This document shows, in pieces, positions 15,342-57,194 of a stretch of 64,000 bases of DNA. Position numbers and translations under genes: made by a program. The stretch covers positions 732,673 through 796,672 of the forward strand of contig OZ025661.1 of the NCBI GenBank assembly GCA_964019335.1, in the 5' to 3' direction. The notes under the pieces are model-generated. The model did no database searches and was not told where the DNA came from. It was given only the letters and a program-made list of their open reading frames with translations. Origin of the DNA: Diplonema japonicum. Lineage: Eukaryota; Protista; Euglenozoa: Diplonemea. How positions within the stretch are numbered: position 1 is the first letter of the stretch; the number at the start of each line of letters is the position of its first letter.

Positions 15342-15412
15342 GCGTAAATGGTCTAGTGGTAGAATGGCTCCCTGCCACGGAGTCGGCCCGGGTTCGATTC
15401 CCGGTTTACGCA
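15342..15412 (+). tRNA. tRNA-Gly(GCC)
   Basis: Acceptor stem GCGTAAA/TTTACGC, anticodon arm GCTCC-CTGCCAC-GGAGT, GGTTCGATTCC, followed by a T6 terminator. Confidence 0.96.
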
Positions 15413-24775: not shown

Positions 24776-25513
24776 ATTTATTTTTCTTCTCTCTTCCTCT
24801 TCCTACCACTCACCTTGTTCGCAAAATGAGTCCCCGGGAGGTATTTAGACCATAGAGTCTAGCACATGTCCATTCTTGACATTGATAAAAAAAAAGAAAA
24901 AAAAAAAAATGGGGTGAGTGGGGAGTTGGGGCTGATCCCGTAGCCCCATGGATTTTTTGTTTTGTTTTGCGGTGTGTGTTTTTTTTTTCTTCTTTTTTTT
25001 TTTTTTTTTCTCTTCTCTTTTTGTTTTGTTTTTTTTTGTTTTCAACAGTTTTGTATTCTTTCTTTGTTCCAATATTTGTTCAACCCTCCCCACCCCGTAT
25101 CTCGCTTTAATATCATTTCATCAATGAGATCTTATCACACAACATGAAGAGTGCGGCTTCTGCGAAGATGGTTTCATGCCCCCCGTGGGATCTTGCGGAG
25201 GTCAATTCGGTCCCAAAGGAAGCAGATCACCTAGCCCCACTTGCACCTCCGACTCCTGTCCTTGCATGAAACGCCAGATACAAAGCCGACCCCCTTGGAT
25301 CTTGAAGCCGTTAAACTTAAATTTTTCGGGGGGCTTTGCAACACGAGGGACAATAAAAATTGCCTGTTGCAACAAGTGAGGTGGGTCGATTTCAAAAAAC
25401 CCCCCAAAAAAAATGAGGCCAATGAGCCCTTTAAAAAAATTCTCATGCCTCTGACCAATTGGGGCGTAGTTTATGTGTCGATACCTAAAATATTTTCATC
25501 GGAAGTATTTCCG

Positions 25514-26151
25514 AAGGCTCGATGATGTCGGGAGGAAGGACCTGGCTGGGCTTCACCAGGAGGCGGCGGTGCTGATCACGGGCTGCTGGAGTGGCTCCGG
25601 AGGGTACAAGCTCCTAGCTGACTGCTTCCCCTCGAAAGAATGGCGGAGGGTGCTGCGGCGACGATGACGGCGAAGGCCTTCTGCTGGCAGTCTTCCCCGG
25701 TTCACAGGGAGACGGTCAAGCTGAAGCAGGCGAACAGGCTGGGGTGTGGGTGGCTGCGCTCTGGCTACCAAGCACTGCGTCGATGCGGGTTGGAACCAAA
25801 GGTGCACTTCGAGTACCTGTCGGCTACGCCCCTGGCGGCCCCGTGGCAGACAGGCATGGTCGACTTCAGGGCTGACCTCCCCGGCGGGGTCACGCGATCG
25901 TCGCCAGACGCGGACAGGCGGAAGGCGGCCGAGGCTGCTCTTGCGGCTCTCCCCCCGGGCATCCATGCCTACACGGATGGCTCGGCGAAAGGCTCATGAT
26001 ACCTTCACTTTGATTTTTGATTTGAGCTCTGCTTTTCAACTCAGCTTTGTTGATTTTTTCTTCCTTTCCCCTTTTTCCTTTTATCCTTTTCAAACCTTCT
26101 CTGATGCTCCCGACCCGGCAGTGGAACAGATATTATTATTATTATTATTAA
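25514..26151 (+). mobile_element. Chimeric truncated non-LTR retrotransposon (family B ORF2 fragment + family A-type 3' tail)
   Basis: 25514-25985 is almost identical to the minus-strand ORF2 copies (with a 7-bp deletion). It then switches to ...GGCAGTGGAACAGA(TAT)n. Flanked by AAGTATTTCCG. Confidence 0.85.
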
Positions 26152-26184
26152 AAGTATTTCCGTCTGCTGGACTACAGGAGGTCC

Positions 26185-26916
26185 TTGCCGGGGGGCAAGA
26201 CAAAGAGGAAGGCTACGGCGATAGAGTTCCGTAGGTTCTTCGGAAACAGTGTCTGGTGGGAACTGTGGTGTGCGGCTGGTGTCAGGGACAGGGACATAAA
26301 GCAGAAAGAGGAAGAGAAAAAGGAAAAGAGAAAGAAGGATAAGGAAGAAAAAAAGGCGACAGACGGAGAAAGCGGGGAGCAGCTGAAGGCGCTGATGGAG
26401 AGACTGGAGGTGATGGAGAGGAAACTAGCGGAGAAGGAAGAGAAGGGGGAGGAAGAGGAAATGATGTTGAGGCACCTGGAGTCAAGAATGGAGACCCAGG
26501 AAGAGGAGATGGGGAAGGTACAGGGTAAGGTGGAAGCGGTCGAAGGTCAGGTTGGTAACCTGGCACAAGCCATCGAGAGAATGGCGACAGTGCAGACGGA
26601 GCGGCTGGTGGCCATGGAGAGGAGGCTGACGGAGACTGGTGCGAGCCAGTATAATAAAATCCTCCTCCTCCTGACAACAGGAGGCAATAGGATGGAGGAA
26701 GAAGAAGAGTCAAGCCCCGAGCCACCACCGCACTGCCACGAGAGACCGGACGAATCTCAGTCCGGCATCGACTACTCACCCACCCAAACTGAACTCCCCT
26801 CCACACCTGTGAGAAAGGTGGGAAACGCGACCTCGCGCCAAGCCACCATGGCCACTACTCCCTCTCATTCAAACCCGTCAGCCCCCCTGAACGCCAAGAA
26901 GAAAGTCTCTCATTAA
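26185..26916 (+). CDS. Family A ORF1 (coiled-coil, probably 5'-truncated)
   Basis: Glu/Lys-rich coiled coil upstream of ORF2. The frame runs back to the insertion junction. Confidence 0.7.
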   Translation: MPGGKTKRKATAIEFRRFFGNSVWWELWCAAGVRDRDIKQKEEEKKEKRKKDKEEKKATDGESGEQLKALMERLEVMERKLAEKEEKGEEEEMMLRHLESRMETQEEEMGKVQGKVEAVEGQVGNLAQAIERMATVQTERLVAMERRLTETGASQYNKILLLLTTGGNRMEEEEESSPEPPPHCHERPDESQSGIDYSPTQTELPSTPVRKVGNATSRQATMATTPSHSNPSAPLNAKKKVSH

Positions 26917-27253
26917 CGAAAGACCTGATTTTAGCGAAGGTCAGAAAACTAAATAAAAAGATTAAAAAAAAAAGAAAGTGTCGCATCAACCAAAAGAACT
27001 TAAAAGAAAAGGGCAAAAAAAAGATTTTAAAAAAAAAAAAAGCCAAAGCCCAAGAAAGGGGAAAAAGAAAAGGCAACCCCACAAACAAAAGAGTGAACAA
27101 TAAACGAAGAGAACAAAACAACGGCGGAAAGCAAGGAAGAATAAAGCGAAGACGAGGACTACTTGGCTACAACACGCGGCTAAATCCTGGCCGGCCCCGA
27201 ACGGGGGTGTCCAAGCAAGACAAGGCGTTAGTGGCGGCGATGATAGGTCAGTT

Positions 27254-31225: not shown

Positions 31226-31565
31226 GGGGTGACCATGAGATAAATTAAGACATTTTTAAAACATTTTTATAAAACATTTTTTGAAAGATAAATTTTATTT
31301 TACGTGGGATGGTAGAGTTTCCTCTATTAAAAGCATTAGGCTCATGAGCGAGACAAGTAAGGTGTTGAGTAGGGAAAAAAGAAAAGAAATGAAATGAATG
31401 AGAGAAAAAAAAGAGAAAAAAAAAAAAAAAAAAAAAAAAGGAATAAATAGTGCTTCGAACAATCCTCCCTTCACTCCCCTCCCCTAGTGTATTTTCGTTC
31501 CCTGCCAAAAAACCCCTCCCTCCTTTTAAGACGGTACAGTGTATTGAAAAGAAAAAAAAAATAAA

Positions 31566-31602
<37 letters not shown>

Positions 31603-32150
31603 AAAAAAAAAAATAAAAAAGAAAGAAAAAAAAACTATATAAATAAACAACAGAAAGAAAGAAAAACAATTCAAGCCCCAACGACAAACAAAAACCGGCA
31701 TGGGGACGGCTCGGGGCCGGTCGAAGGCAAGAGTCGCCCCGAAATCCTTAAGACGATCCTTCCTATTGAGGGGGATGCGCTACCAGGGGAAAGGAAAAAA
31801 GGTGGCCATGGGCAGGACAGTCGAAGGAATGTACTAGGGGGCCAAGAGGCAGACTGACTGCGCCATAGGCGATACAAAAGGAGAAGATTTTGACCAAGAA
31901 AGAATGGAACAATGGAATATCTGAAAGGAAGTATACACACACTCCCCTTACTGAATACCGTCTTGCTTCACCCTGTGATTTGCCAGGCACAATTATGTCA
32001 CCCTGTGCAACACAGACTTTTGATGTTTCAAACCTCTTTATCTTCTCTCCACCTTTTGTCTCCCCCACTGGCAGTGGAACAAATATTATTATTATTATTA
32101 TTATTATTATTAAAAGTATTTCCGAAAAAAAAAAAAAAAAGAAAAGAATC

Positions 32151-34349
32151 ATGTCGACCTCCAACAAGAAGAAAAAGAGGCCCGCTCACCACAAGTCCAG
32201 GACGGAAGAAATCCTGGAGAAAGCCCGCGGTGAGCGGGTAAAGGACAACGCCGCCGCCAGGGCGAAGCGCACGCGCGAGGAGGTGGAGAGGAAGCGCGCA
32301 GAGGGGGTCACGCCGGTGGTGACACCCTCCCCCGGGCAAGGGAAGAAGGCGGCCAGAAGGGCCAGACAGAAGGCAGCAGCTGCTGACGCTGCCACCGCCG
32401 CCGCTTCGGGCTCCGACGACTCTGTCGTCTTAATTAGCGAGTCGCCGGGCGTTGTCACCTCGTTCACGGTCGACACGCCAGAGGTCAGGAGGGCGAGGAT
32501 GAGGACTGCTGCCGCCGACACCACTGCCACTGCTCCTGCACCTGCTGCTGCCGACTCCCCTGCTCCTGCACCTGCTGCTGCCGACACCACTGCTCCTGCG
32601 CCTGCTGCTGCCGACTCCCCTGCTCCTGCGCCTGCTCCAGCCTCTACTGCTGCCGTGTGGTCTACTGCCGTCCTCACTGCCGCTGCCTGCGACACCGCCC
32701 TCCCCATGTCGGACTCTGACACCGACGAGAAGGACACGGCCCCCGCTCCCGCACCGGCCCCGGAGCCTCACTGGGATCTGGTCCCCGACACGTGGGACGC
32801 CCCCATCTACACCAACACTGCTCCCCCTGAGGAGGTGCCCCGCGCCGTCGTCGCTCTCGACGACCTCCAGCAGGTGGACGCGATTCGCACTGCGAGGCCC
32901 ACGGCCTCCCTGACCTTCGTCCTCTTGACGGAGGTTGCCGGTTCGACCACCCCATGCACCGTCATCGTACTCGCCGGCCAGCGTGTCGTGCACAAGGCCG
33001 TGCACACCTTCTCGGTCGGGTCGAACCCCCCCTCCTACACCCCACTCGCTTCTTTTGATGGCGGCTCTGAGGTAGTGTACGTCAGCGTGAAAGCTGACAG
33101 CGTGAACGCGGCGAAGGCCAGGGTTCGGGACCTCGTCGCGACCCAGGGCGTGGCGGTGGAGGAGCAGGCGATCTTCCGCCCGAAGAAGATCGACGGGAAC
33201 GAGCCGCGGGCGCGGCACTGGAGCCACGAGGTGGGCCTGCGGCTCCCGGCGGCATCCGTCCATGCGGTACTCCGGGCCTCGGGCGACGGCTGCATGGTCA
33301 GGACGACCGAGCGGCGCGGGGGGTACACCTACGTGCCCATCGTAGCGGAGGGGAGGGCGGAGGCCTTCCAGCTGGCGAAGGCACTGGGCGGGTTGTCCCT
33401 GGGGGTGGCCCATCGCAAGGGTTGGACCGTGAGGTGCCTGCCGGAGACGGAGCAGCGTCTGAGGGAGGCCCTCGCCAAGCAGAGGACAAAGCGTCGGTAC
33501 CTGCTCACCGGAGCCCCGCTGTCTGTTACCAGGGCAGCCTTCGACGGGATGATGGACCACATCGGTTGGAAGCCGTCGTCCATCATCCGACGCTCTGACA
33601 CGGCGTTCCAGGGCACGAGGCAACTCGTGTTCTTCATCGTCGCCGACGCCCCGCCCCCCAAGGCCAGGACATGGCTCTTCGGCTCTCGTCTCGTTCGACT
33701 GCACGACGCGGAAGACCACCCGAGCGTCACGCTCCCGCCCCGCACCAACAAGAAGGCTCCACCCGCGGCTCGGACGCCGGTTGCGGCAACCACGGCCCAG
33801 ACGCCGACGCCGGCCCCTGGCCCCACGGTGCAGTCCACAGGGCTGCCGAGCACCAATCCGTGGTCATCTCCACCGAGCTCGGTTGCCCCTCCGCCACTTG
33901 GCACTGTGACTCCGGTCTCCTCTGCGGCTTCCCCGACCACGACACCTCCCCGTGACTCCCAGAAGAAGAATCCCGCACCGGAACCAGAGGTCCCGGCGCT
34001 CCTCGCGCTGATCCAGTCGATGCAGGCGACCATCGACGGTCTGCAGGCGACGGTCCGCGACCTCCAGGAGAGGATGGCAGCGTCACTTGGCGCGCCGGCG
34101 TCATCTGCAGACGGAGCTGGGCGGACGGCAGTGGCTGGGAAGGGCAAGGGCGGCAAGGCTGGGTCCAAGGCAGGGACGAAGGGGCACCAGGCGCAGGGCG
34201 TAAGCACGCCAGGCCCCTACCCGACATCGACGGAGCAAGGGGGCGGAAGGGGACGCGCCCAGTCGCTGGCTGGCGACTCTGCTTCCCCCAACGGGGCCGG
34301 CCGTGGACGGGCAGCCTCTGTGGGCCCGGCCCCCGCCCCTGCCAATTGA
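32151..34349 (+). CDS. Family B1 ORF1
   Basis: ATG at 32151. Basic N-terminus, Ala/Pro tandem repeats (32505-32650), and a C-terminal half homologous to 46086-46913 (FQGTRQLVFFIV, RTWL, DHP). Confidence 0.85.
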   Translation: MSTSNKKKKRPAHHKSRTEEILEKARGERVKDNAAARAKRTREEVERKRAEGVTPVVTPSPGQGKKAARRARQKAAAADAATAAASGSDDSVVLISESPGVVTSFTVDTPEVRRARMRTAAADTTATAPAPAAADSPAPAPAAADTTAPAPAAADSPAPAPAPASTAAVWSTAVLTAAACDTALPMSDSDTDEKDTAPAPAPAPEPHWDLVPDTWDAPIYTNTAPPEEVPRAVVALDDLQQVDAIRTARPTASLTFVLLTEVAGSTTPCTVIVLAGQRVVHKAVHTFSVGSNPPSYTPLASFDGGSEVVYVSVKADSVNAAKARVRDLVATQGVAVEEQAIFRPKKIDGNEPRARHWSHEVGLRLPAASVHAVLRASGDGCMVRTTERRGGYTYVPIVAEGRAEAFQLAKALGGLSLGVAHRKGWTVRCLPETEQRLREALAKQRTKRRYLLTGAPLSVTRAAFDGMMDHIGWKPSSIIRRSDTAFQGTRQLVFFIVADAPPPKARTWLFGSRLVRLHDAEDHPSVTLPPRTNKKAPPAARTPVAATTAQTPTPAPGPTVQSTGLPSTNPWSSPPSSVAPPPLGTVTPVSSAASPTTTPPRDSQKKNPAPEPEVPALLALIQSMQATIDGLQATVRDLQERMAASLGAPASSADGAGRTAVAGKGKGGKAGSKAGTKGHQAQGVSTPGPYPTSTEQGGGRGRAQSLAGDSASPNGAGRGRAASVGPAPAPAN

Positions 34350-37300
34350 AGGGGTCCCGCTGAGCAGGGGGGGCGTCAGATCGACGACCACGCCCCCTCT
34401 CCTGGTCTCCCGCGCATACAGCCGAGGAGACACCTTCCACATCACTTGTACGACGTCCTCCCTTCCTTGATCCCTTCCTTACTTGAACGGATGTCGGCCA
34501 GGGACCTGCTGGGGCTGCTTGGGCTGGTTGAGACGAACCCCGGTCCACCTAAGAAGCTCCCACCCCCGAAGCCGAAGGGACTCAGGGTCCTGTCCTGGAA
34601 CTGCAACGGTCTTGCCGCCAAGTGGTCAACCGTGTCCTACCACGCTGTCCTACTGACGCTGGATATCATTATGATCCAGGAGACACACCTTAGGGAGGGG
34701 CATGAGACACCATACCTGCCTGGATACACGTCCTACAGGAGGGACCGCACAACACCGGTGACGGACGGCTCTGCGACGAGAGGCGGTGGTGTCATCACGT
34801 ATGTCCGTGACTGCCTTGCCTCGGAGGAAGCTCCTTTCGTACTCCCTGAAGGTGACAGTGTCACTGAGCGATTAGACGTGAGGATCTCCTGTGTGAAGCG
34901 CGTCCCGGTCACCCTCTCCAACGTGTACCTCACGCCTGTGAGTATAAGCAGAGGAACAAGGGACCCCGAGTACCTACGGCCGGGCAGCCTACCTGTGGGG
35001 AAGAACACGATCGTTGCTGGCGACTTCAACGCACACCACAGCTCTTGGGATGCCAAGGTGACAACGCCCAACGAAAGGGGGAACGTGGTCAGGGACTGGC
35101 TTGACACCCACGGCTACACCGTCTACAACAACCGAGACGAGCCGACGCGGGACTCACCGCCACGCGTTCTGGACCTGGTGGTGGGACGTTGTGCGGAACT
35201 GGAGCCGAGGACGTTGGGGACGTGGGGCTCTGATCACAGCCCGGTTTCCTTCCGCCTGCCGCTTGAGGACGCCTACTGCTCGGAGCGACCCTGCCCTACC
35301 TGGAACTTCAAAAAGGCCAGGTGGGACGACTTCACCGCGGCCGCCGCTGCCCTTCTGACCAAGATCGACACGAAGGCCCACATTGACTCCTTCACGAAGG
35401 AGGTTACAGAGGCTCTTCTGCATGCAGCTGACGACCACATTCCGCTTTGCGGAGTGCGACGAGGCCCGACCCCCTGGTGGACGGCCGAACTCGAAGACGC
35501 CTTCGAAGAACGGAACGCCCTGCGGGATCGCTTCCTCAAGTCGGCTGAGACTGAGGACGACAGCGTGGCGGCGGTCTACAAGGCGAAGGTCAAGGAGGTA
35601 AACCAACTCATGACCGAGTCGAAGCGCGCGGCCTGGGGTGAGATGGCGGCTGACCTCAGTCGGAGCAAGGACCTCGGGTCTGCGTTTAGGGCGGTGAAGA
35701 AGCTGGACGGCAGACACCGCAGACCGCACCTTCCCATTCTCGAGGGGAGGTTCGTGACGGACAAGGCGAAAGCCGACCGCCTGGGGGCTCACTTCGGCAA
35801 GCTCTACGGCCAGGGTGGTGATGGGGACGCGGTGGACGTAGCTCCTTCGACGAACGTGCTTGGGTGCCACGCCTTTACGGTGTATGATCTCACCCGCGGT
35901 CTGGGAAGGATGAAGACACGCAGTGCAGCGGGTGATGATGGCATCTTCGCGGAGATGCTTCTCCACCTCGACCAACCCTCGCTCGGGGTTCTACTTCTGC
36001 TCCTCAATCGCTCATGGCAGGCGGGGATCGTGCCGGGTGCCTGGAAGAAGGGGGTGATTGTTCCAGTGGCGAAGGCAGGGAAGGACGCCACGTTGCTTGC
36101 ATCGTACCGTCCCATATGTCTCACTAGCTGTCTTTGTAAGCTGCTTGAGAGGATGATAGAGGAGAGGCTTACCTTTCTCCTAGACTCTAGCGCGTCGGGC
36201 GTTGAGGGTCTCCACGACAGCCAGGCTGGCTTCAGGAGGGGCCGCTCCACGGAGGAGCAGGTGGCGTCCCTGACCGGGTGCCTGTCGAGGAACAAAGACA
36301 GTCGGCGTCTGTCGGCTGCCCTGCTGTTTGACTTCTCATCTGCGTTTGACCTGGTTCAGCACGAAGCTCTCTTGGGCATGATGCGGAGGAAAGGGATCCC
36401 TGAGCCCTTCGTCGAATGGACGCGCTCCTTCCTCTGCGGTCGTACGGCGGCGGTCACGGTGGGTCGTTCGCGAGGGTCGACGACGAAGGTGAGGAGAGGG
36501 GTGCCCCAAGGGTCTGTGCTGGGACCCGTCCTTTACACCATCTACGTCGACGAGCTAGCCAGGTTGCTGGTTGGGATGGCGGACCTGTCGGTTCTTTATG
36601 CCGACGATGTTGCGGTGGTGGTCTCAGCCGGGCAGGGCGACCTGGCTGGTCTTGAGCGAGGGGCCCAGGCTGTGATGGACGCGGTTGAGGGCTGGTGTGG
36701 GAGACGGGGCATGCTGCTGAGCTCCAGCAAGTCGCAGGCAGTGTGCGTTCCCTATCAGAAGCGGCTTAATGTCTACTTCTCTTCGTCGCGTGTCCCGCTT
36801 TGCCCGGGGGCCTTCCAGGACCCTGTCCTTAATCTTGGGGTTGGGGTCTGTGGGACCTTGTCTGGCGTCCGTGAGCTGTCTGGCTTTCGGGTCGTGGAGG
36901 CGGGTGGCAAACGGTCCTTCGACATTCCCGCCGCCATCCGGAGGTCCGACATTGGTTACATGGCGGCTCGCCCCTTGCCTCTATGTGGGTCGGCGAAGTA
37001 TCTTGGGGTCACTGTAGACTCTGGGCTCACGTTTGACGAGCATGCGGGGGATGTCCTGAGGAGCGCTGACAAGAGGCTGAGGGTACTAAGGCTCCTGTCG
37101 GGCACGACCTGGGGGTGCAAGAAGGCCACGCTCCGATCTCTGTACCTCACGTACGTTCTCCCGCTACTCCGGTACTGCATGGGTGTTTACTTTGCCAGGC
37201 TCAGGGACAGCAGGGTGGAGGAGCTTGTTGGGCTCCACCAGAGAGCGGCGGTGCTGATCTCGGGTTGTTGGCACGGCTCGGGCACGGCGAAGGTTGTTGC

Positions 37301-38657: not shown

Positions 38658-39397
38658 AGTGAGTAGGGTGAGATCAACATTTCAATTCTTTTAGTGCTTA
38701 CGTTCCCTTCCCCTCTCTTCCACTCCCTCTCATCCTTTTCTTTATCATCATCCGGCGTCTGGCCTTTCTCTTACCAGTATGCCCGTCCCCTTTTAAACTT
38801 TTAAATTTTTAAAATTAACATCCTCTTGTTATCGTGTGCCCTGACATTGTAGTCAAAAACGGATGGCCCGGCCTACTCTGAAGTTGCCCAGATGAGTCCT
38901 CTCATCTTCGCACGAACGAGTGTGGTACGGCCATCCCCTCCCCCCGCCAGCCGGAGTGCAGCGGGGAGAGCAAATGCTTCCCCTATCATCCCCATGCGCA
39001 CACGCACACTCGCTTCCCCTTTTGATTTTGAGAGATTTTACTCTCACCCTTTCATGTTTCGCTCAATGGAGCAAATCCCTCTCGAGGGGGCGACCGGGGC
39101 CAGTTCCGGTCACCAGAGGTCCCAGTTGAGAAAAACGACGAACTGGGGTCAAGGTCCCCGTCCGAGTCACGTAGGTCTACGCGGCTTGGAATTAAAGTAA
39201 TTCAGCCCTCTTCGGCTGTTCCAAACAGGTGCACGGGTTGGCGGAGTCCACAGCTCCATCTGATTGCAGAAGAACTGGTCTTCGCCCTCCCTGTAATATT
39301 TCCATGCTTCCCTTCACCTTTCCCCTTCCCAGGTGTTGCTCCCCCATGGTGGCACCTATTGGTATTTTGAAAAAAAAAAAAAAACCACAGGTTTTTA

Positions 39398-39518
39398 GGG
39401 GTCGAATACACACACACACATGAAAATGTAAGCCCGACCCGAGTGTGTGTGGTGGCTGCTCACCTCCCAGTGGTGGCCCTGGGCAACGTGCACGCAAGGT
39501 GCACGGCCAAGAGGCAGC
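39398..39518 (+). ncRNA. HDV-like self-cleaving ribozyme 1
   Basis: P1 GGGGUC/GGCCCU (G.U at +1), P2 GCUGCUC/GAGGCAGC, P3 ACC/GGU, L3 UCCCAGU, J1/4 GG-GCAAC, P4 GUGCAC/GUGCAC, J4/2 GGCCAA (catalytic C at 39507). Confidence 0.8.
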
Positions 39519-39629
39519 TTCCCTCTTGTTGTGTGGGGTGAGTCGTGTGGTGACGCTGGACCCCTGGCCGAGCAAAACGAGGGGGGTGGCTGGAGCGAAG
39601 ACGGTCTGTTTGGCACAAGCCGCTATTAA

Positions 39630-39754
39630 GGGGTCCGATTACACACACACATGAACATGTAGACGAACGCGGTGTGTGTGGTGGCTGCCCACCTCCACGG
39701 TGGTGGTCCCTGGGCAACGCGCAGGTGGTGAAGGTTGCGCGGCTGAGAGGCAGC
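39630..39754 (+). ncRNA. HDV-like self-cleaving ribozyme 2
   Basis: P1 GGGGUCC/GGUCCCU (one U-U), P2 GCUGCCC/GAGGCAGC, P3 ACC/GGU, L3 UCCACGGU, GG-GCAAC, P4 GCGCA/UGCGC, J4/2 GGCUGA (C at 39743). Confidence 0.78.
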
Positions 39755-40967
39755 TCGAGAGGAGGAGCAGGGGAACGGTGTTGCGTTGGGCGGCCGAGGG
39801 CCGGAGCCGGAGCGCCGTGTTGGATGGCATCCCCTGGGGAAGCCTCCTGCACGCCAGAACGAGGACCGGATCCGGAGACGCCGTTTGATGGTTTTCCTGG
39901 GGAAGCTGACCTGAACGCCCGAGCGAAGTGGCCTGAGCGTGGGGAGCACTGTTTGCCGACAGAAAACAAGATTAATGCAAAATGTCCAGAGTGCGCAACA
40001 GTGTTTTCCACGTGAGGGGTTCGATTTCAAAGTGGGTCCTCCAGCCACCAGAGTTGTAGGCTGGGTTCCCGCGGAGAGAGAATCGGAGCGGAGGCGTCAA
40101 GTACGGTGGACCACCTCAAGGGATGTAAGTCCATTGTGTGACACAGTCTCTCGGTGAAGGTCCGACTTCTGGTGGGTAGGCAGGCAGAACCGTATAGGGG
40201 TGTAAGGAACACCATTGTGTGACCTGTCGCACACGGGGAAAGCCCAAGGCCGGTGGGTTATCTGCCAACGTGTCCCCCTCCTCTACTTCGCCTCTCACAA
40301 CCTCTTCCTCCCCGCTGACGATTGACTCCACAGCACTCGCCGGCCTACCTGGTGCGCCCGCGTCATTACGCGATAGGGAGTCTCGTTGGAAAAACATCTT
40401 TCGCAGCTGAGAAGGGGGGTTTTTTTTTTTAGAAATAGTAACCAGTAATTCTTTTTTCCCCCTCCCCCATTGGTTTCCCTTTCTTTTTATTTTCCCTACC
40501 AGGCTCCTTTTCTAGTTATGCATTCCTCCCTTCTTTGTGGAAGTTGAGTTCTGAACTTGACTTTTCCTTTTACATTTCCTTTTTCAAATTTATATTTTAG
40601 GCTCCCACAGCCCAACAAAACCAGCAGATGGTGGGGTCCCTGTGGCTGGATAAATCAAAATTAGGGATCTCATCGCCGTCCTTTAATATTTGGGGTTGTC
40701 TTTATTTGGTGACAGCCGAAGCCTTCGAGGCCCAAGAGCTGCGTGGCGGGGGAATGGGGAAAAATAAGAAAGGTGGATGTCGGGGGCCCAGGAAAATATA
40801 CAAGAGGTCGAGCAAACGAGCAAGAGGTCCCCCCCGATATGGCTCAGTAAGAGAGACTGTTTTAACCTTCCCTTCCCAATTTTTATGGTTTCAACTTTCT
40901 CCGCCCCCCATCCCCCCCCCGCCTGGTAGTGGAATAATTATTATTATTATTAAAAGTATTTCCGAAG

Positions 40968-41050
40968 CCTCTCGTAGCTCAATTGGTAGAGCGCGCGACT
41001 GTAGAATAATAGCCATCGCGCGGCCGCTGGTTCGATTCCGGCCGAGAGGA
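40968..41050 (+). tRNA. tRNA-Tyr(GTA) with 10-nt intron (41005-41014)
   Basis: Acceptor stem CCTCTCG/CGAGAGG, D arm GCTC-AATTGGTA-GAGC, CGCGA-CTGTAG[AATAATAGCC]A-TCGCG, GGTTCGATTCC, T6 terminator. Confidence 0.95.
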
Positions 41051-41135
41051 TTTTTTGGATGTCAGAAGAGGAATTTCTGATATAAGTGCACTTTAAACAA
41101 AAAAAAGTGTTTACTTCCCGCCCGGCGATTGTAAC

Positions 41136-41206
41136 GCGTAAATGGTCTAGTGGTAGAATGGCTCCCTGCCACGGAGTCGGCCCGGGTTCGATTCCCGGTT
41201 TACGCA
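41136..41206 (+). tRNA. tRNA-Gly(GCC)
   Basis: Identical to 15342-15412. Confidence 0.96.
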
Positions 41207-41278
41207 TTTTTTAATCCCTATCATAAAATGGTGGTGAAAAAAGGTGGGCAAGTAAAAAAGGGAAGACGGGAAAAAAGA

Positions 41279-41350
41279 AGGGCACGCCCGGGTTCGAACC
41301 AGGGACCAATCGGACTGCAGCCGAACGCTCTACCACTGAGCTACGTACCC
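41279..41350 (-). tRNA. tRNA-Cys(GCA)
   Basis: Reverse complement is GGGTACG-TA-GCTCAGTGGTAGAGC-G-TTCGG-CTGCAGT-CCGAT...GGTTCGAACCCGGG-CGTGCCC-T. Confidence 0.93.
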
Positions 41351-41792
41351 CTGCAAGATTTTTTTTTTTTTTTTTTTCAAAATACCAATGCAGGGCCGCC
41401 ATGGAGAGCAACACCTGAGAAAAGGGAAAAAAAGGTGAAGGGAAACCATGGGGAAATAGGGAGGGCAAAGGACCAGGCTTCTGCAAGCAGGAGGAGCCCT
41501 GGTCCCCCACCAACCCGTGCTCTGCTTTGGGACAGCCGAAGAGGGCTGAATTACATTATTCCCTCAGTCAAGTGAGAGAAAAACGGGGGCCTACCTTCCA
41601 GCTGGATGTCCTTCTTTGGCTGGAACCTCCGGCGGAAAGCCCCCCAGGGAGGTATTGCTCCTATTGAGCGAATCATTGGTGAGTGTGAAAATAAAAAAAA
41701 AGGGGAAATGGGAAACAGTGAGAGGAAGGTGAAGGAAGGGAAAGGAAAGTGGAAAACACAACATTTCACTTTACACACACGCGGGCGATCCC

Positions 41793-44700
41793 TTAGCGCA
41801 GCACGGGGGCCGCGGGACCGGCGTCAAGAGAGACCGGAGGAGGGGGCGGCACGTTTGAAGGTGCAGTGACGTCTGTAGACGCCAGGGATGATGGCGAGGT
41901 GAACAGTCCGGAGCGTGACCAGGCGAGCAGGCCAGACTCAACAACGAGGTCGTAGATCTGGGTCACGCGTCTCGACAGGGAGAAGGCTAGGGAGGGAGTA
42001 CCAGCAGGAGTGTCGATCGCCCCCCTCCCGATCACAGGGCACCCACCGACAACATGCTCCCTGGACATCGGTGCTGCGTGGCAGGCTGGGCACCGGAGCA
42101 CACCCTTGTGCTTCCTGTTCGGGCCAGCAGTCTGCAGGAAGCCGAAGAAGAGAGCCGAGTGACCAATCCGCAGCCGCGAGATGACCGTTTCAGCTTGTCT
42201 GGGGAAGCCAAGGGGGAAGTGCGCAGACCGAAGCTCGGTCGCCACCGCGTAGTTGTGGGCGAGGGATGTTATGAGCTCCGCGGACCTCCGCACCACCCAC
42301 CGTCGCACCAGGGCCCTCACTGATCGGTAGTCAAGGGAGGGCCTGTCCTGCTTCCGCTTCGTTCCCTCCACGGCCAGAGCGTCAGCCTTCTCGTTCCCGT
42401 CCACCCCACAGTGGGAGGGCACAAACTGGAGGACCACCGGTGTCCCCTGCGTGCGCGCCGCGGACACCAGCCGGCTCCACGTCTGGTGGTCGAGCTTCTC
42501 CCTCTGTCGCGTTGGGCCAGCTCGCAGCTGCTCGACGAGGGAGAGGGAGTCGGTGCAGATCGACAGCGGGGACTTCGCCAGCGAAGGGTGTGTTTTTCGG
42601 AGGGTAGCCACCATATCCAGCGCCGTTTTCACAGCCATGCCCTCTGCCCGAAAAGATGAACAGAAGTCGTTGACGCCATGGCACACAGACACAGGGGTCA
42701 GGGGGGGAGGCAGCTGCAGATAAACCCCAGAGCCACCTTTCGCCTTCTGTCCGACCTGTACAACCGAGCCATCCGTGTAGGCATGGATGCCCGGGGGGAG
42801 AGCCGCAAGAGCAGCCTCGGCCGCCTTCCGCCTGTCCGCGTCTGGCGACGATCGCGTGACCCCGCCGGGGAGGTCAGTCCTGAAGTCGACCATGCCTGTC
42901 TGCCACGGGGCCGCCAGGGGCGTAGCCGACAGGTACTCGAAGTGCACCTTTGGTTCCAACCCGCATCGACGCAGTGCTTGGTAGCCAGAGCGCAGCCACC
43001 CACACCCCAGCCTGTTCGCCTGCTTCAGCTTGACCGTCTCCCTGTGAACCGGGGAAGACTGCCAGCAGAAGGCCTTCGCCGTCATCGTCGCCGCAGCACC
43101 CTCCGCCATTCTTTCGAGGGGAAGCAGTCCTGCCTCAGCTAGGAGCTTGTACCCTCCGGAGCCACTCCAGCAGCCCGTGATCAGCACCGCCGCCTCCTGG
43201 TGAAGCCCAGCCAGGTCCTTCCTCCCGACATCATCGAGCCTGCTGTAGTAGACCCCCATGCAGTAGCGCAGCAGCGGGAGGATGTACGTAACGTAGAGAG
43301 ACCGCAGAGTGTCCCTCTTGCTGCCCCAGGACGTGCCGGACAAGAGCTTCAGCACCCTCAGCCTTTTGCTGGCCCGCCGTAGGATGTCCTGTGCGTGTTC
43401 ACCGAACGTGAGCCCAGAGTCCACCGTAACCCCAAGGTACCTCGCGTGTTCAGATAGAGGCAGGGGACGGGCCGCAACGTAATCCACGTCGGGCCGTCGC
43501 ACGGCTGCATGCATGTCCCGCACGCAGCGGATCCGCACACCACCCGCCTCCACAACCTGAAGGCCCGCCAGCTCCTGGTCCCCGGAGATCGTGCCATCGG
43601 CGTTCACCCCCAGGCCGAAGAGTGGGTTCTGGAAGGCACCTGGCTGAAGGGGGACTCGTGACGAAGTGAAGTAGACCCCGAGACGTTTCTGGGGGGGGAC
43701 GCAGACTGCCTGCGTCTTGGACGTGCTCAGCAGCATGTCACGCTCCCTGCACCAGTCCTCAACCGCATCCACCACCGCCTGCGCCTTCCGCTCCAGCCCA
43801 GCCACGTCCCCTTGTCCAGAGGAGATCACAACCGCCACGTCGTCGGCGTAGAGCACCGAGACGTCCGCCAGTCCCTCCAGTCTCCTGGCGAGTTCGTCGA
43901 CGTAGATGGTGTACAGGATGGGACCCAAGACAGAGCCCTGGGGGACACCCCGTCGCACCTTCGTCGTCGACCCCCTCGACCGTCCAATCGTGACCGCAGC
44001 AGTACGGCCGCATAGAAAGGACCGCGTCCACTCCACGAAGGGTTCGGGGAGACCCTTCCCTCGCATCTTGTCCAGCAGGGCACCATGGGGCACCAGGTCG
44101 AAGGCAGAAGAGAAGTCGAACAGCAGAGCGGCCGAGAGACGTCGATCGTCTTTGTTCCTCGACATGCACTCAGTGAGGGTTGCCACCTGCTCCTCCGTGG
44201 AGCGGCCGCGTCTGAAACCAGCCTGGCTGTCGTGGAGTCCCTCGACTCCCGTCCCGTCCGCGTCAAGAAGAAACGTGAGCCTCTCCTCGATCATCCTCTC
44301 CAGCAGCTTGCAGAGGCAGCTGGTCAGGCAGATCGGCCGGTAGGAAGCCAAGAGAGTCGCATCTTTTCCAGGTTTCGGTACCGGGACGATCACTCCCTTC
44401 TTCCAGGCACCGGGGACGACACCCATCAGCCAGGAGCGATTGAGGAGTAGAAGGAGGACACTGAGGGAGTCCGTGTTCAGGTGTAGGAGCATCTCCGAGA
44501 AGATTCCGTCTTCCCCGGCCGCGCTGCGCGTCTTCATCCTTCTCAGGCCGCGGGTGAGGTCGTCCACGGTGAAGGCTTGACACCCGAGTCTGCTTGCAGA
44601 AGGAGCGGCGTCCTTCGAGTTCCCGTCACCACGCCTGCCGTAGAGCTTAGCGAAGTGCGCCCCCAGCCGGTCGGCCTTCGCCTTGTCCGACACAAATCTT

Positions 44701-46085
44701 CCCTCGAGTACAGGAAGGTGTGTCTTTCGGTGCCTGCCGTCCAGCTTCTTCACCGCTCTGAACGCAGCCCCGAGGTCCTTGCTCCGGCTGAGGTCGGCCG
44801 CCATCCTTCCCCATGCCTCACGCTTCGTCTCGTCAAGGAGTCGGTTGACTTCCTTCACCTTCGCCCTGTACTCCTCCACCACCACGTCCGCCTCTTGAAG
44901 CAGGAGTTCGCGCAGGGTGTTCCGCTCTTCGAAGGCGTCCTCGAGCTCAGCAGTCCACCAGGGGGTCGGGCCACGTCGCATCCCACAGAGGGGAATGTGG
45001 TCGTTCGCCGCAGTCAAAAGGGCTTGTGTAAACCCCTTCGTGACAGAGTCAATCGGAGCCGCCGTGTCAACACCAGCAAGCAGGCGGGCAACAGCAGCAG
45101 TGTAGTCATCCCATCTGGCTTTTTTGAAATTCCAGGTGGGGAAGGGGCGCTCCGAACGGTAGACGTCCTCAAGAGGCAGGTGAAAGGATACGGGACTATG
45201 ATCGGAGCCCCACGTGCCCAGCGTCTTCGGCTCAAGCTTCGCGCAGCGCCCCACAACCAGGTCCAGAACGTGTCGTGACGAGTCCCTCGTCGGTTCGTTG
45301 CGGTCGTTGTAGACGGAGTACCCGTGGGTGTCCAGCCAGTCCCTGACCACGTTCCCCCTCTCGTTCGGCGTCGTCACCGTGGCGTCCCAGGAGCTGTGGT
45401 GAGCATTGAAGTCACCCGCTATGACTGTGTTCTTCCCCATGGGAAGGCTGCCAGGCCGCAGGTACTCAGGGTCCCTCGTGCCTCTGCTCGCGCTTACCGG
45501 TGTAAGGTAAACGTTGGAGAGAGTGATCGGCTCACGCTTCTCGCAGGAGATCCTCACATCCAGTCTCTCAGTGACACAGTCCCCAGCCGGGAGTACGTGC
45601 GGAACCTCCTCCGAGGCAAGATCGTCGCGGACATACGTGACAATACCACCACCCCTCGTCGCAGTGCCGTCAGTCACCGGTGTCAACCGATCCCTCCTGT
45701 ATGACCTGTACCCAGGCAGGTGTGGCGTGTCGTGCCCTTCCCTCAGGTGCGTCTCCTGTATCATGATGATGTCCAGCGACAAGAAGTCAGCATGGCGAGA
45801 TACGACGGTCCATTTCGCAACGAGGCCGTTGCAGTTCCACGAGACAACCTTGAGACCCTTAGGCGACGGGGGCGGCAGCTTCTTGGGTGGGCCAGGGTTT
45901 GTTTCGACCAGCCCAAGCAGCCCCAACAGGTCCCTGACGGACATCCTCCCGAGTAGGGTGGGGATCAGTGCAGAGAAGTCGGTGAAGAAACAGAGAGGTA
46001 GGAGTCTCCTTGGGAGGATGCGAGGGAGACTAGGAGAGGGAGCATGGTCGTGGATCTGCTGCTCCCCCTGTTCTGCGGGGCCCCT
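41793..46085 (-). CDS. Family B2 ORF2: 2A-like-APE-RT-RNase H-CCHC (first ATG at 45944; frame open back to the ORF1 UGA)
   Basis: Same motifs as B1; 1383 aa from the ATG. Confidence 0.95.
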   Translation of the reverse strand, partial: RGPAEQGEQQIHDHAPSPSLPRILPRRLLPLCFFTDFSALIPTLLGRMSVRDLLGLLGLVETNPGPPKKLPPPSPKGLKVVSWNCNGLVAKWTVVSRHADFLSLDIIMIQETHLREGHDTPHLPGYRSYRRDRLTPVTDGTATRGGGIVTYVRDDLASEEVPHVLPAGDCVTERLDVRISCEKREPITLSNVYLTPVSASRGTRDPEYLRPGSLPMGKNTVIAGDFNAHHSSWDATVTTPNERGNVVRDWLDTHGYSVYNDRNEPTRDSSRHVLDLVVGRCAKLEPKTLGTWGSDHSPVSFHLPLEDVYRSERPFPTWNFKKARWDDYTAAVARLLAGVDTAAPIDSVTKGFTQALLTAANDHIPLCGMRRGPTPWWTAELEDAFEERNTLRELLLQEADVVVEEYRAKVKEVNRLLDETKREAWGRMAADLSRSKDLGAAFRAVKKLDGRHRKTHLPVLEGRFVSDKAKADRLGAHFAKLYGRRGDGNSKDAAPSASRLGCQAFTVDDLTRGLRRMKTRSAAGEDGIFSEMLLHLNTDSLSVLLLLLNRSWLMGVVPGAWKKGVIVPVPKPGKDATLLASYRPICLTSCLCKLLERMIEERLTFLLDADGTGVEGLHDSQAGFRRGRSTEEQVATLTECMSRNKDDRRLSAALLFDFSSAFDLVPHGALLDKMRGKGLPEPFVEWTRSFLCGRTAAVTIGRSRGSTTKVRRGVPQGSVLGPILYTIYVDELARRLEGLADVSVLYADDVAVVISSGQGDVAGLERKAQAVVDAVEDWCRERDMLLSTSKTQAVCVPPQKRLGVYFTSSRVPLQPGAFQNPLFGLGVNADGTISGDQELAGLQVVEAGGVRIRCVRDMHAAVRRPDVDYVAARPLPLSEHARYLGVTVDSGLTFGEHAQDILRRASKRLRVLKLLSGTSWGSKRDTLRSLYVTYILPLLRYCMGVYYSRLDDVGRKDLAGLHQEAAVLITGCWSGSGGYKLLAEAGLLPLERMAEGAAATMTAKAFCWQSSPVHRETVKLKQANRLGCGWLRSGYQALRRCGLEPKVHFEYLSATPLAAPWQTGMVDFRTDLPGGVTRSSPDADRRKAAEAALAALPPGIHAYTDGSVVQVGQKAKGGSGVYLQLPPPLTPVSVCHGVNDFCSSFRAEGMAVKTALDMVATLRKTHPSLAKSPLSICTDSLSLVEQLRAGPTRQREKLDHQTWSRLVSAARTQGTPVVLQFVPSHCGVDGNEKADALAVEGTKRKQDRPSLDYRSVRALVRRWVVRRSAELITSLAHNYAVATELRSAHFPLGFPRQAETVISRLRIGHSALFFGFLQTAGPNRKHKGVLRCPACHAAPMSREHVVGGCPVIGRGAIDTPAGTPSLAFSLSRRVTQIYDLVVESGLLAWSRSGLFTSPSSLASTDVTAPSNVPPPPPVSLDAGPAAPVLR

Positions 46086-46913
46086 TCAATTGGATGGACC
46101 CATGGAGGCAGAGCGCCCCTTGACCCCATTGGTGAAGAGATCTTTGGTCTCCGCGAACGACCTGGCCCGCCCCCTCGTACCCAGGTTCGTCACCGCAGCC
46201 TCAGAGGTCGTAGCGAGAGGAGGAGCCCCCTTCTTCCCCTTCCCCTTCCCTTTCCAGACACTGTCGTGTGTCGTCGTCACCCCCGGTGTAGGGTCCCGCG
46301 GCACTGCCGTTCCCGTCGTCAGCGTGGCCGCCTGCGGCAGGAGGAGGCGGAGCGTCGTCCGCAGATCGGAGATCATCTCCTGCTGAGAGTCGATCGTCCT
46401 CTGCAGCCCGACGATCGACTCCTTCAGCGTGGCGACGAGCTCAGTGAGAGCGGCGACCTCAGGCGACCCGGAAGGGACCCCCTCCTTGTTTCCCGCAGAC
46501 ACGTTGCGGGGCGGTGTAGGGGACGTCACAGTGTCGAGCTGGGGGGGAGCCACCGAGCTCGGTATGGACGCCCACGGGCTGGTGGGAGGAAGCCCAGTTG
46601 CTTTCACCGCAGGGCCAGTCTCCGAGGGTGTCGACGCCGATACAGGTGCCGGGTCAGGTACAGGTGTAGGCGCAGGTGCAGGTACATGAGAAGATGTGGG
46701 TGCCGGGGTCGAGGACGTTGCAAGCGCAGGTGCAGATGCAGGTGTCGTCCTGTTGATGAGAGGGGGCGGCTTGACGGTCGGGTGGTCGTCCGCATCACGG
46801 AGGCAGACAAGGCGCCCCCCAAGGAGCCACGTCCTGGACTTCGGGGGCGGGCTGTCGACGACGATGAAGAACACGAGTTGCCTCGTGCCCTGGAACATCG
46901 TCTGCGTGCGCCG
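46086..46913 (-). CDS. Family B2 ORF1, C-terminal part
   Basis: Homologous to B1 ORF1 (RR..T.FQGTRQLVFFIV..PPPK.RTWL). Ends AAT TGA. Confidence 0.8.
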   Translation of the reverse strand, partial: RRTQTMFQGTRQLVFFIVVDSPPPKSRTWLLGGRLVCLRDADDHPTVKPPPLINRTTPASAPALATSSTPAPTSSHVPAPAPTPVPDPAPVSASTPSETGPAVKATGLPPTSPWASIPSSVAPPQLDTVTSPTPPRNVSAGNKEGVPSGSPEVAALTELVATLKESIVGLQRTIDSQQEMISDLRTTLRLLLPQAATLTTGTAVPRDPTPGVTTTHDSVWKGKGKGKKGAPPLATTSEAAVTNLGTRGRARSFAETKDLFTNGVKGRSASMGPSN

Positions 46914-46927
46914 CCTGCAAGATTTTT

Positions 46928-49146
46928 TTTTTTTTTTTTTTTCAAAATACCAATGCAGGGCCGCCATGGAGAGCAACACCTGAGAAAAGGGGAAAAAAAG
47001 GTGAAGGGAAACCATGGGGAAATAGGGAGGGCAAAGGACCAGGCTTCTGCAAGCAGGAGGAGCCCTGGTCCCCCACCAACCCGTGCTCTGCTTTGGGACA
47101 GCCGAAGAGGGCTGAATTACATTATTCCCTCAGTCAAGTGAGAGAAAAACGGGGGCCTACCTTCCAGCTGGATGTCCTTCTTTGGCTGGAACCTCCGGCG
47201 GAAAGCCCCCCAGGGAGGTATTGCTCCTATTGAGCGAATCATTGGTGAGTGTGAAAATAAAAAAAAAGGGGAAATGGGAAACAGTGAGAGGAAGGTGAAG
47301 GAAGGGAAAGGAAAGTGGAAAACACAACATTTCACTTTACACACACGCGGGCGATCCCTTAGCGCAGCACGGGGGCCGCGGGACCGGCGTCAAGAGAGAC
47401 CGGAGGAGGGGGCGGCACGTTTGAAGGTGCAGTGACGTCTGTAGACGCCAGGGATGATGGCGAGGTGAACAGTCCGGAGCGTGACCAGGCGAGCAGGCCA
47501 GACTCAACAACGAGGTCGTAGATCTGGGTCACGCGTCTCGACAGGGAGAAGGCTAGGGAGGGAGTACCAGCAGGAGTGTCGATCGCCCCCCTCCCGATCA
47601 CAGGGCACCCACCGACAACATGCTCCCTGGACATCGGTGCTGCGTGGCAGGCTGGGCACCGGAGCACACCCTTGTGCTTCCTGTTCGGGCCAGCAGTCTG
47701 CAGGAAGCCGAAGAAGAGAGCCGAGTGACCAATCCGCAGCCGCGAGATGACCGTTTCAGCTTGTCTGGGGAAGTCAAGGGGGAAGTGCGCGGACCGAAGC
47801 TCGGTCGCCACCGCGTAGTTGTGGGCGAGGGATGTTATGAGCTCCGCGGACCTCCGCACCACCCACCGTCGCACCAGGGCCCTCACTGATCGGTAGTCAA
47901 GGGAGGGCCTGTCCTGCTTCCGCTTCGTTCCCTCCCAGGCCAGAGCGTCAGCCTTCTCGTTCCCGTCCACCCCACAGTGGGAGGGCACAAACTGGAGGAC
48001 CACCGGTGTCCCCTGCGTGCGCGCCGCGGACACCAGCCGGCTCCACGTCTGGTGGTCGAGCTTCTCCCTCTGTCGCGTTGGGCCAGCTCGCAGCTGCTCG
48101 ACGAGGGAGAGGGAGTCGGTGCAGATCGACAGCGGGGACTTCGCCAGCGAAGGGTGTGTTTTTCGGAGGGTAGCCACCATATCCAGCGCCGTTTTCACAG
48201 CCATGCCCTCTGCCCGAAAAGATGAACAGAAGTCGTTGACGCCATGGCACATAGACACAGGGGTCAGGGGGGGAGGCAGCTGCAGATAAACCCCAGAGCC
48301 ACCTTTCGCCTTCTGTCCGACCTGTACAACCGAGCCATCCGTGTAGGCATGGATGCCCGGGGGGAGAGCCGCAAGAGCAGCCTCGGCCGCCTTCCGCCTG
48401 TCCGCGTCTGGCGACGATCGCGTGACCCCGCCGGGGAGGTCAGCCCTGAAGTCGACCATGCCTGTCTGCCACGGGGCCGCCAGGGGCGTAGCCGACAGGT
48501 ACTCGAAGTGCACCTTTGGTTCCAACCCGCATCGACGCAGTGCTTGGTAGCCAGAGCGCAGCCACCCACACCCCAGCCTGTTCGCCTGCTTCAGCTTGAC
48601 CGTCTCCCTGTGAACCGGGGAAGACTGCCAGCAGAAGGCCTTCGCCGTCATCGTCGCCGCAGCACCCTCCGCCATTCTTTCGAGGGGAAGCAGTCCTGCC
48701 TCTGCTAGGAGCTTGTACCCTCCGGAGCCACTCCAGCAGCCCGTGATCAGCACCGCCGCCTCCTGGTGAAGCCCAGCCAGGTCCTTCCTCCCGACATCAT
48801 CGAGCCTGCTGTAGTAGACCCCCATGCAGTAGCGCAGCAGCGGGAGGATGTACGTAACGTAGAGAGACCGCAGAGTGTCCCGCTTGCTGCCCCAGGACGT
48901 GCCGGACAAGAGCTTCAGCACCCTCAGCCTTTTGCTGGCCCGCCGTAGGATGTCCTGTGCGTGTTCACCGAACGTGAGCCCAGAGTCCACCGTAACCCCA
49001 AGGTACCTCGCGTGTTCAGACAGAGGCAGGGGACGGGCCGCAACGTAATCCACGTCGGGCCGTCGCACGGCTGCATGCATGTCCCGCACGCAGCGGATCC
49101 GCACACCACCCGCCTCCACAACCTGAAGGCCCGCCAGCTCCTGGTC
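46928..49146 (-). mobile_element. Second family B2 copy, 5'-truncated (RNase H/CCHC/3' UTR)
   Basis: Nearly identical to 41364-43580 with a few SNPs. Bounded by CCTGCAAGATTTTT. Confidence 0.93.
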
Positions 49147-49160
49147 CCTGCAAGATTTTT

Positions 49161-49680
49161 CCAATAATAATAATAATAATTATTCCACTACCAGGCGGGG
49201 GGGGATGGGGGGTGGAGAAAGTTGAAACCATATTGGGAAGGGAAGGTTAAAAACAGTCTCTCTTACTGAGCCATATCGGGGGGAACCTCTTGCTCGTTTG
49301 CTCGACCTCTTGTATATTTTCCTGGGCCCCCGACATCCACCTTTCTTATTTTTTCCCCATTCCCACGCCACGCAGCTCTTGGGCCTCGAAGGCTTCGGCT
49401 GTCACCAAATAAAGACAACCCCAAATATTAAAGGACGGCGATGAGAGTCTGAGTAACCCCAAATATTAAAGGACGGCGATCAGAGTCTGAGCTGAGGAGG
49501 AGCGTGCCTTGGTCTGTTGACGCGTTGGCGGAAGCGTTCGCGACTGCTTCGTCCTCGACCTTCTGGGCATCTGCCTCCTTGGCGGCCGCCAACGTCAAAG
49601 CTTCCTCCTTTTTGGCAGCGGCCTCCCTCTCCGTTGCGGCAGCGGCTGCGGTTGCTGCGACCTTCTTCTTCTCCTTTTAA
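49161..49680 (-). mobile_element. Truncated/chimeric (TAT)n-tailed element plus probable ORF1 fragment
   Basis: 49161-49446 is the reverse complement of about 40667-40950, followed by a ~38-bp junction duplication. The minus frame KEKKKVAATAAAAATEREAAAKKEE...LLLSSDSD resembles the B1 ORF1 N-terminus. Confidence 0.65.
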
Positions 49681-57145: not shown

Positions 57146-57192
<47 letters not shown>

Positions 57193-57194
57193 CC

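Follow-up and report, generated by a model that had tools for sequence, protein, structure and literature searches.

The 64,000-nucleotide stretch of Diplonema japonicum DNA analysed here (contig OZ025661.1, positions 732,673 to 796,672; hereafter the window) contains a small group of tRNA genes flanked on both sides by arrays of retrotransposons without long terminal repeats (non-LTR retrotransposons), each array ending directly upstream of a tRNA gene. Four tRNA genes are called by Rfam in the window. tRNA-Tyr(GUA), which has a short intron (40968..41050, forward strand), and tRNA-Cys(GCA) (41279..41350, reverse strand) are both intact and adjoin the arrays, with a tRNA-Gly(GCC) between them (41136..41206, forward strand). 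A second tRNA-Gly(GCC) at 15342..15412 (forward strand) serves as an internal control. Neither tRNA-Gly gene has an insertion on its upstream side.

Two short motifs mark the array junctions. AAGTATTTCCG, which is -14 to -4 of tRNA-Tyr, occurs four times (25503, 26152, 32114 and 40954), and CCTGCAAGATTTTT, the native upstream bases of tRNA-Cys from +1 to -13, occurs three times (41350, 46914 and 49147). Both strands of the window were searched, and copies of either motif are recorded on the forward strand only; the counts expected by chance are 0.03 and 0.0004, respectively. Every copy lies at an element junction, where element sequence on the two sides is kept apart. The initial annotation of this DNA had described these copies, their place at junctions and the common direction of the elements; all three are confirmed, and the Rfam tRNA calls agree with the positions.

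The target copies bound six insertion units made up of about nine element pieces, in place of the roughly seven elements first counted. Three units lie before tRNA-Tyr (25515-40953, 15.4 kb, between four target copies) and three before tRNA-Cys (41364-49680, 8.3 kb). All pieces run in the same direction as their own tRNA gene, with the tail towards it, and the two arrays lie on opposite strands. No element piece was found in the other 40 kb of the window.

Contigs of four short-read runs from three studies were aligned to 24500-43500; 20 of the 23 listed runs contain the stretch or part of it, with no RNA run among those listed, which carries no message about expression. The contig results given below refer to 15 of 61 joints, 12 of 57 spacer rows and 24 of 614 loose ends. 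In the left array, all of it on the forward strand, target copy 1 (25503..25516; -14 to -1 of tRNA-Tyr) forms the outer end and has its last 2 nt in common with unit L1 (25515..26151). This unit is a chimera, in which a 471-nt internal piece of open reading frame 2 (ORF2), nearly identical to that of family B2 save for a 7-nt deletion, passes at 25986 into the 3′ end of a different family with an (ATT)n tail; a loose contig end lies at 25984 in run X2. Target copy 2 (26152..26162; -14 to -4) is followed by unit L2 (26163..32113), a family A element that is 5′-truncated in ORF1 and has an (ATT)n tail, and target copy 3 (32114..32126; -14 to -2) by unit L3. The first part of L3 is an element of family B1 (32127..39384), with a poly(A) tail at 39370-39384. 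Behind this tail stands a 13-nt spacer (39385..39397), which is not the Tyr target and is likely to be a target footprint brought from another locus. A first putative hepatitis delta virus (HDV)-like ribozyme (39398-39519) comes next with about 100 nt of further sequence (together 39398..39626), past which other copies run on differently and loose contig ends occur in three of the four runs. The last part of L3 is the 1.3-kb non-coding element C (39630..40953), which begins with a second putative HDV-like ribozyme (39630-39755) and has an (ATT)n tail. B1 and C thus lie within one pair of target copies, and target copy 4 (40954..40967) adjoins tRNA-Tyr.

In the right array, which lies on the reverse strand, the target copy adjoining tRNA-Cys (41351..41363; -13 to -1) merges into the poly(A) tail of unit R1 (41364..46913), a family B2 element 5′-truncated in ORF1. 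A second copy (46915..46927) separates it from unit R2 (46928..49146), also of family B2, which is 5′-truncated in the reverse transcriptase (RT) and differs from R1 at 10 positions in 2217 nt. The third copy (49148..49162; -15 to -1) is followed by unit R3 (49163..49680), a chimera in which a 66-codon B2-type ORF1 piece (86% identical; 49676-49479) is combined with a short tandem duplication and with the final 287 nt of C (96.5% identical); directly next to this unit is a host kinase gene's leader (ATG at 49717, forward strand). An outer target copy of R3 was not found, the best match having five mismatches in 15; the right array has no outer duplication, which corrects the initial annotation. 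Three of the six units are chimeric, and B2 and C sequences are present in both arrays.

Tail ends fall at -14 to -16 of tRNA-Tyr and at -13 to -15 of tRNA-Cys, blurred by runs of A and ATT, which refines the 13-15 bp originally given. The 5′ junctions lie at -4 to about +1, and 1-3 nt of microhomology is seen at several of them. The target duplications measure 11-15 bp, and both tRNA genes that were hit are whole. This is the junction geometry of target-primed reverse transcription, and the units are genuine insertions with duplicated targets; regeneration of the target through its own duplication, in arrays of 8-15 kb, had been proposed at the outset. In all four runs, contigs also join a related left flank directly to tRNA-Tyr, with 9 other letters between them, and thereby reveal an un-inserted Tyr gene, either a paralogue or an allele. 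Target copy 1 is therefore native upstream DNA that has been pushed 15.4 kb away from its gene.

The two tRNA-Gly genes have 31 nt of upstream flank in common and are 96% identical over 110 nt (15311-15420 and 41105-41214); the gene at 15342 is followed, after 36 nt, by the first ATG of an adenylate/guanylate cyclase ORF. Intron position 41009 of tRNA-Tyr is A in the window and T in the contigs of all four runs.

Element families and their expression

The arrays hold at least two divergent families, as had been noted: the ORF2 proteins of A and B are about 30% identical, and those of B1 and B2 74%. Family A retains an ORF1 remnant (ending at 26916) and an ORF2 frame at 27104-31225 (forward strand). 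In B1, an ORF1 of 733 aa (32151-34349, forward strand) ends in TGA and is in frame with the ORF2 frame (34350-38657); in R1, the TGA of the B2 ORF1 (46088-46086, reverse strand) is followed by an intact ORF2 frame (46085-41793). A, B1 and B2 each combine an apurinic/apyrimidinic endonuclease (APE; PF03372/PF14529), an RT (PF00078) and a ribonuclease H (RNase H; PF00075) in one ORF2, according to Pfam. The tails of B1 and B2 are poly(A), those of A and C (ATT)n. Contig depth relative to the flank, taken from single contigs of runs X1 and X3 and not equivalent to copy number, corresponds to roughly 8-10 copies of A, 21-48 of B1, 26-30 of C, 160-240 of the 3′ part of B2 and 7-8 of tRNA-Tyr. In run X2, joints connect family A (27232, 32034) to the 3′ end of C (40889, 40874), tails being exchanged between families.

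Family B2 is transcribed, since near-identical D. japonicum transcript proteins exist. The ORF2 of R1 has 5 differences in 1383 aa from an EukProt D. japonicum transcript protein, and a full B2 ORF1 of 951 aa belongs to the same Trinity gene as B2 ORF2 in the transcript set. The nearest other relative of this ORF2 comes from D. ambulator and is 42-43% identical. ORF1 matched no Pfam family, its Atlas leads were all under 0.9, and of 1.84 billion representatives searched for relatives only two matched, B2's own ORF1 being one.

In a whole-ORF2 tree (1020 columns, 55 hand-chosen proteins), A and B form a clade with D. japonicum, D. ambulator and unlabelled EukProt proteins at a support of 0.988, and the clade that holds this group together with D. 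papillatum proteins has a support of 1.0. The support for A and B is 0.997 in an RT-only tree of 179 proteins. The D. papillatum clade-mates are annotated as 'Tbingi protein', and no trypanosomatid ingi or L1Tc reference was among the matches listed from the protein searches. On this sequence evidence the elements appear to be one diplonemid lineage, which we term Ingi-related, and not Ingi, because an ORF1 is present and the trees hold no reference ingi or L1Tc. The assignment to an Ingi/I-group lineage in the initial annotation is thus retained as regards the APE, RT and RNase H domains, and the 2A motif and the candidate ribozymes also fit Ingi, but the elements carry the ORF1 that Ingi lacks.

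No credible tRNA was found at 80 metagenome loci from distant relatives, whose best segments are 22-40% identical, but only 15 of the 80 reach the C-terminal part of ORF2, most being collapsed elements, and the set is hence uninformative; the one ARAGORN call at the default threshold has an implausible 1.1-kb intron. The element tail patterns gave no match in viral contigs.

The putative HDV-like ribozymes head element C and the piece before it; the true 5′ ends of A and B lie outside the window. They score 25.9 and 22.5 bits against Rfam RF02682, below the cut-off of 44. When folded by hand, both pair in P1-P4 with a G-U first pair, and P4 covaries. A loose ribozyme descriptor matched one of the two copies and also shuffled DNA. 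In the contig spacer rows, one of the elements that come next after a C tail begins at 39629, a single base ahead of where ribozyme 2 is predicted to cut. The L1Tc ribozyme is reported to free copies from tandem co-transcripts (PMC5814959).

A 2A-like motif precedes the APE, with the form GDVESNPGP in A (27389-27415) and the variant GLVETNPGP in B1 (34521-34547) and B2; the canonical form is found in the relatives P0045, P0063 and P0224. In both B1 and B2 the ORF1 TGA is in frame with ORF2, whose first ATG lies 48 codons downstream. Over codons 1-26 past the stop, the nonsynonymous and synonymous divergences (pN and pS) of the one B1/B2 pair are 0.10 and 0.47, compared with 0.10 and 0.59 at the start of the APE, and the relation is reversed in shifted frames. 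A hairpin with paired changes lies 3′ of the ORF1 stop in B1 and B2, and a D. papillatum relative, a partial gene model, has about 520 open residues before the APE. This single pair of sequences suggests that family B reads through the ORF1 UGA into ORF2, after which the 2A-like site would release the enzyme; possible contributors are RNA structure, restart at a non-AUG codon and trans-splicing. Among 20 of 47 literature titles on readthrough and non-LTR elements, no such case was found.

In family A, where ORF1 and a -1 frame overlap (26793-27170), a slippery heptamer, G GGA AAC, stands in frame at 26820. Because no strong structure was found downstream and the A-rich linker resembles host leaders, trans-splicing is as likely here as a -1 frameshift. 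The frame itself is uncertain, as the window and the short-read contigs differ over family A by about 10 gap letters of homopolymer type, some of them in this linker. A long A-rich tract stands directly before the first ATG in six of the eight host ORFs examined (5996, 11718, 51669, 53132, 57195 and 60737), and also before B1 ORF1; A-rich splice tracts have been reported for D. japonicum (PMC12621601).

Probable targeting of tRNA gene flanks

Chance is excluded as the source of the tie between these insertions and tRNA 5′ ends. With about 300 copies and a genome of 35-118 Mb (size range from PMC12621601), the probability that two given tRNA genes are each hit within a 4-bp window is about 1e-10 on these rough copy numbers, and 1e-8 to 1e-7 when 200 loci are allowed for. 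The duplicated Tyr and Cys targets match at 9 of 16 positions and have GGAA..AT.T in common, which had been thought to be all that they share. That claim was too narrow: tRNA-Tyr and tRNA-Cys are also near-identical from +7 to about +25, in the A-box/D-arm (GTAGCTCA.T-GGTAGAGCG, starting at +7), where tRNA-Gly differs. The upstream motif alone is insufficient, because GGAARDAT occurs at 20 sites in the window, which is the chance level, and only two of them are at an array junction. Three protein families and their passengers share both spots, which favours position relative to the tRNA gene as the determinant. We therefore incline to the view that the elements are steered by tRNA gene position, with the RNA polymerase III (Pol III) start complex as their most likely docking site; tethering to this complex is suggested by analogy with Ty3, DGLT-A and TRE5-A (PMC5006619, PMC5391098).

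In such a mechanism, a particle of element protein and RNA would be held at the assembled tRNA gene, and the APE would nick the template strand at about -13 to -16, as the junctions suggest, tuned by the local GGAA, with the tail priming reverse transcription. The other end is joined at -4 to about +1, which duplicates 11-15 bases, leaves the tRNA whole and presents the spot for use once more; families A, B1 and B2 and their non-coding partners have all inserted at these two spots. HDV-like ribozymes may cut element 5′ ends out of RNA that reads through the stack, and missed cuts, template jumps and deletions would yield the chimeric units. ORF2 of family B would be made by readthrough of the ORF1 UGA and its enzyme freed at the 2A-like site.

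Several observations weigh against steering by tRNA gene position. The evidence comes from one locus, two of the four tRNA genes in the window are empty, and the contigs show at least one tRNA-Tyr with a near-identical target that is empty as well. Measured from GGAA, the nick has one and the same place in the two targets, but measured from +1 or from the A-box its position shifts by one base, while the A-box is common to the hit Tyr and Cys genes and not to the empty Gly genes; both patterns fit recognition of DNA sequence. There is no clear gradient from young inner to old outer units, private amino acid changes numbering 4 in 1383 for R1 and 4 in 595 for R2, the outermost left unit L1 being nearly identical to B2, and R3 is the only clearly more diverged unit. 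Two contig joints lead from within A into B by GGAAAA runs (26337 to 34052 and 31798 to 41527), and these may be off-tRNA insertions, template switches or deletions. Finally, the clade of A and B has a support of only 0.34 in a larger RT-only tree of 310 sequences.

A rather unlikely alternative is that the locus is a local hot spot of loosely specific Ingi-type elements, at which open chromatin or RNA polymerase II (Pol II) termination, together with a weak GGAA preference, admitted a first copy, the duplicated targets and tails attracted more, and most copies lie elsewhere. Tandem L1Tc repeats flanked by one repeated 9-nt target (PMC5814959) and kinetoplastid Pol II termination just upstream of tRNA genes (PMC6597758) are reported and would suit it, as would the possible insertions within family A and the B2 3′ ends, which at perhaps 160-240 come near the whole tRNA gene set (211 tRNA genes in D. 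papillatum). A hot spot accounts poorly, however, for two independent first insertions whose positions, counted from +1, agree to within 2 bp and which share their orientation to the tRNA, and for the lack of any stray copy elsewhere in the window.

R1, Tx1 and R2 elements read conserved RNA genes. Here, ORF2 might likewise read the A-box/D-arm of a subset of tRNA genes and cut at the upstream GGAA, with no host factor, a possibility that we regard as unlikely. The likeness of Tyr and Cys downstream of +7, not shared by the two empty Gly genes, and the alignment of the nick on GGAA speak for it, and APE elements of the Tx1 and R1 clades are reported to be sequence-specific (PMC4640811). On the other hand, Tyr and Cys are one base apart in the spacing from nick to A-box, there is a Tyr copy without an insertion, and A and B use the same spots although their ORF2 proteins are so divergent. 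The contigs bear on this point as well. Among the 12 of 57 spacer rows listed, three read 'C tail, short spacer, next element' with spacers unlike the Tyr target; stacks therefore occur at other loci with other targets. One such spacer resembles -16 to -6 of tRNA-Gly, a weak argument against sequence reading, as 13 of 4000 random 10-mers score as well and the comparison was chosen post hoc.

An assembly artefact or segmental duplication is highly improbable: the homopolymer-type differences between window and short-read contigs (10 gap letters in family A), the lack of any listed contig piece spanning the arrays and the missing target copy at the right outer end would be in keeping with it, but family and truncation point vary from unit to unit, 10 sites distinguish R1 from R2, matching transcript proteins exist, and contigs of three runs from three studies cross from the left flank 30 letters into L1, where they stop at 25544, one short of the bridging rule and hence a hint.

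Docking on the Pol III start complex at tRNA genes might extend well beyond this locus. Tentatively, and with considerable doubt, we suggest that genome-wide, tail-first Pol III docking evolved in a diplonemid Ingi-related lineage independently of yeasts and slime moulds. Its divergent families and ribozyme-headed passengers would share the site, move pieces of stacks between tRNA genes, help to build repeat blocks between polycistronic clusters, and use retrovirus-like UGA readthrough with 2A release.

Comparison with known systems

Targeting upstream of tRNA genes is already known, including in a non-LTR element with RNase H, Dp_NLTR-A of Dictyostelium purpureum, which is a closer precedent than the systems named in the initial annotation (PMC5006619). 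Dp_NLTR-A has its RNase H after the RT, as here, and is reported 2-6 bp upstream of tRNA genes in 16 cases; Pp_NLTR-B, also with RNase H after the RT, lies 39-64 bp upstream (PMC5006619). The host of Dp_NLTR-A is an amoebozoan, and its authors place it in none of the RNase H-bearing clades (PMC5006619). Compared by description only, its domains match those found here, but the tRNA-proximal end lies at 13-16 bp in D. japonicum, and within the duplicated target the 5′ junction falls at -4 to +1. Retroelements targeted to tRNA genes are recognised by a number of copies that stand similarly far from such genes (PMC5006619); here, six units stand at two of the window's four tRNA genes.

Like the elements described here, TRE5-A and TRE3 are APE-type, two-ORF elements that insert near tRNA genes in a specific orientation and are joined by later arrivals at the same gene (PMC5391098, PMC5911963). 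They lie, however, about 50 bp upstream and turn their 5′ end to the tRNA (PMC5391098), whereas in the present arrays it is the 3′ tail that points to the tRNA, at 13-16 bp. These sources file TRE5 under L1, in contrast to the elements here with their RNase H, 2A-like motif and putatively ribozyme-headed partner. TRE5-A needs the B box (PMC5391098).

The ingi/L1Tc elements with their partners RIME/NARTc share the order APE-RT-RNase H, a 2A-like peptide before the APE, a short non-coding partner and tandem copies between repeated targets, and have a 5′ HDV-like ribozyme to which the two putative ones here may correspond (PMC5814959, PMC12278014, PMC3708506, PMC3894237). Tandem L1Tc copies with a repeated target, which the initial annotation did not mention, are already known (PMC5814959). 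Ingi has one ORF and lacks ORF1 (PMC3894237, PMC3708506), in contrast to the ORF1 of 733-951 aa found here, with a remnant in A. The poly(A) tail and short target duplication of the Ingi clade are matched by B1 and B2, whereas A and C end in (ATT)n. The cited passages on ingi/L1Tc describe no tRNA-gene targeting.

The distance is the same as that of Ty3, Tj1 and DGLT-A, which insert about 13-16 bp ahead of where the mature tRNA begins, close to the Pol III start site (PMC5006619, PMC5911963). Ty3 is TFIIIB-tethered, and DGLT-A inserts at about 15 bp in either orientation; unlike the elements here, these are integrase-based LTR elements (PMC5006619, PMC5911963).

In the literature consulted, which did not extend to most subscription papers or to Repbase, there was no report of tRNA-upstream targeting in diplonemids, other euglenozoans or Ingi. 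The present case is real and clean, and is apparently an undescribed instance of a known strategy, in a new supergroup, lineage and orientation and with an unusual translation signal. Since tRNA-upstream targeting has been described in fungi and dictyostelids, a case in Euglenozoa would take this convergence to a third eukaryotic supergroup. An Ingi-related lineage in the orientation opposite to TRE5-A would also allow direct comparison with the loosely specific ingi/L1Tc, and an APE-type element that inserts harmlessly and keeps a set distance to a tRNA gene is an interesting prospect for targeted gene insertion. The translation of ORF2 in non-LTR elements is a question to which the ORF1-UGA-2A-ORF2 layout gives a testable answer, and this layout is a possible intermediate between two-ORF and 2A single-ORF forms.

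Other features of the window

Just left of the left array, at 22070-24795, lie nested inverted-repeat elements resembling miniature inverted-repeat transposable elements, whose arms, 50-85 nt long, show 83-94% complementarity. At 24500-25133 the contigs are far deeper than in the unique flank. A near-perfect palindrome with 193-nt arms (97% complementary) and a 16-nt loop is present at 63136-63537, and shorter palindromes related to it lie at 8576-8791 and 56145-56362. At 57042-59552, a G-protein-coupled-receptor-like domain is fused to a PIP5 kinase.

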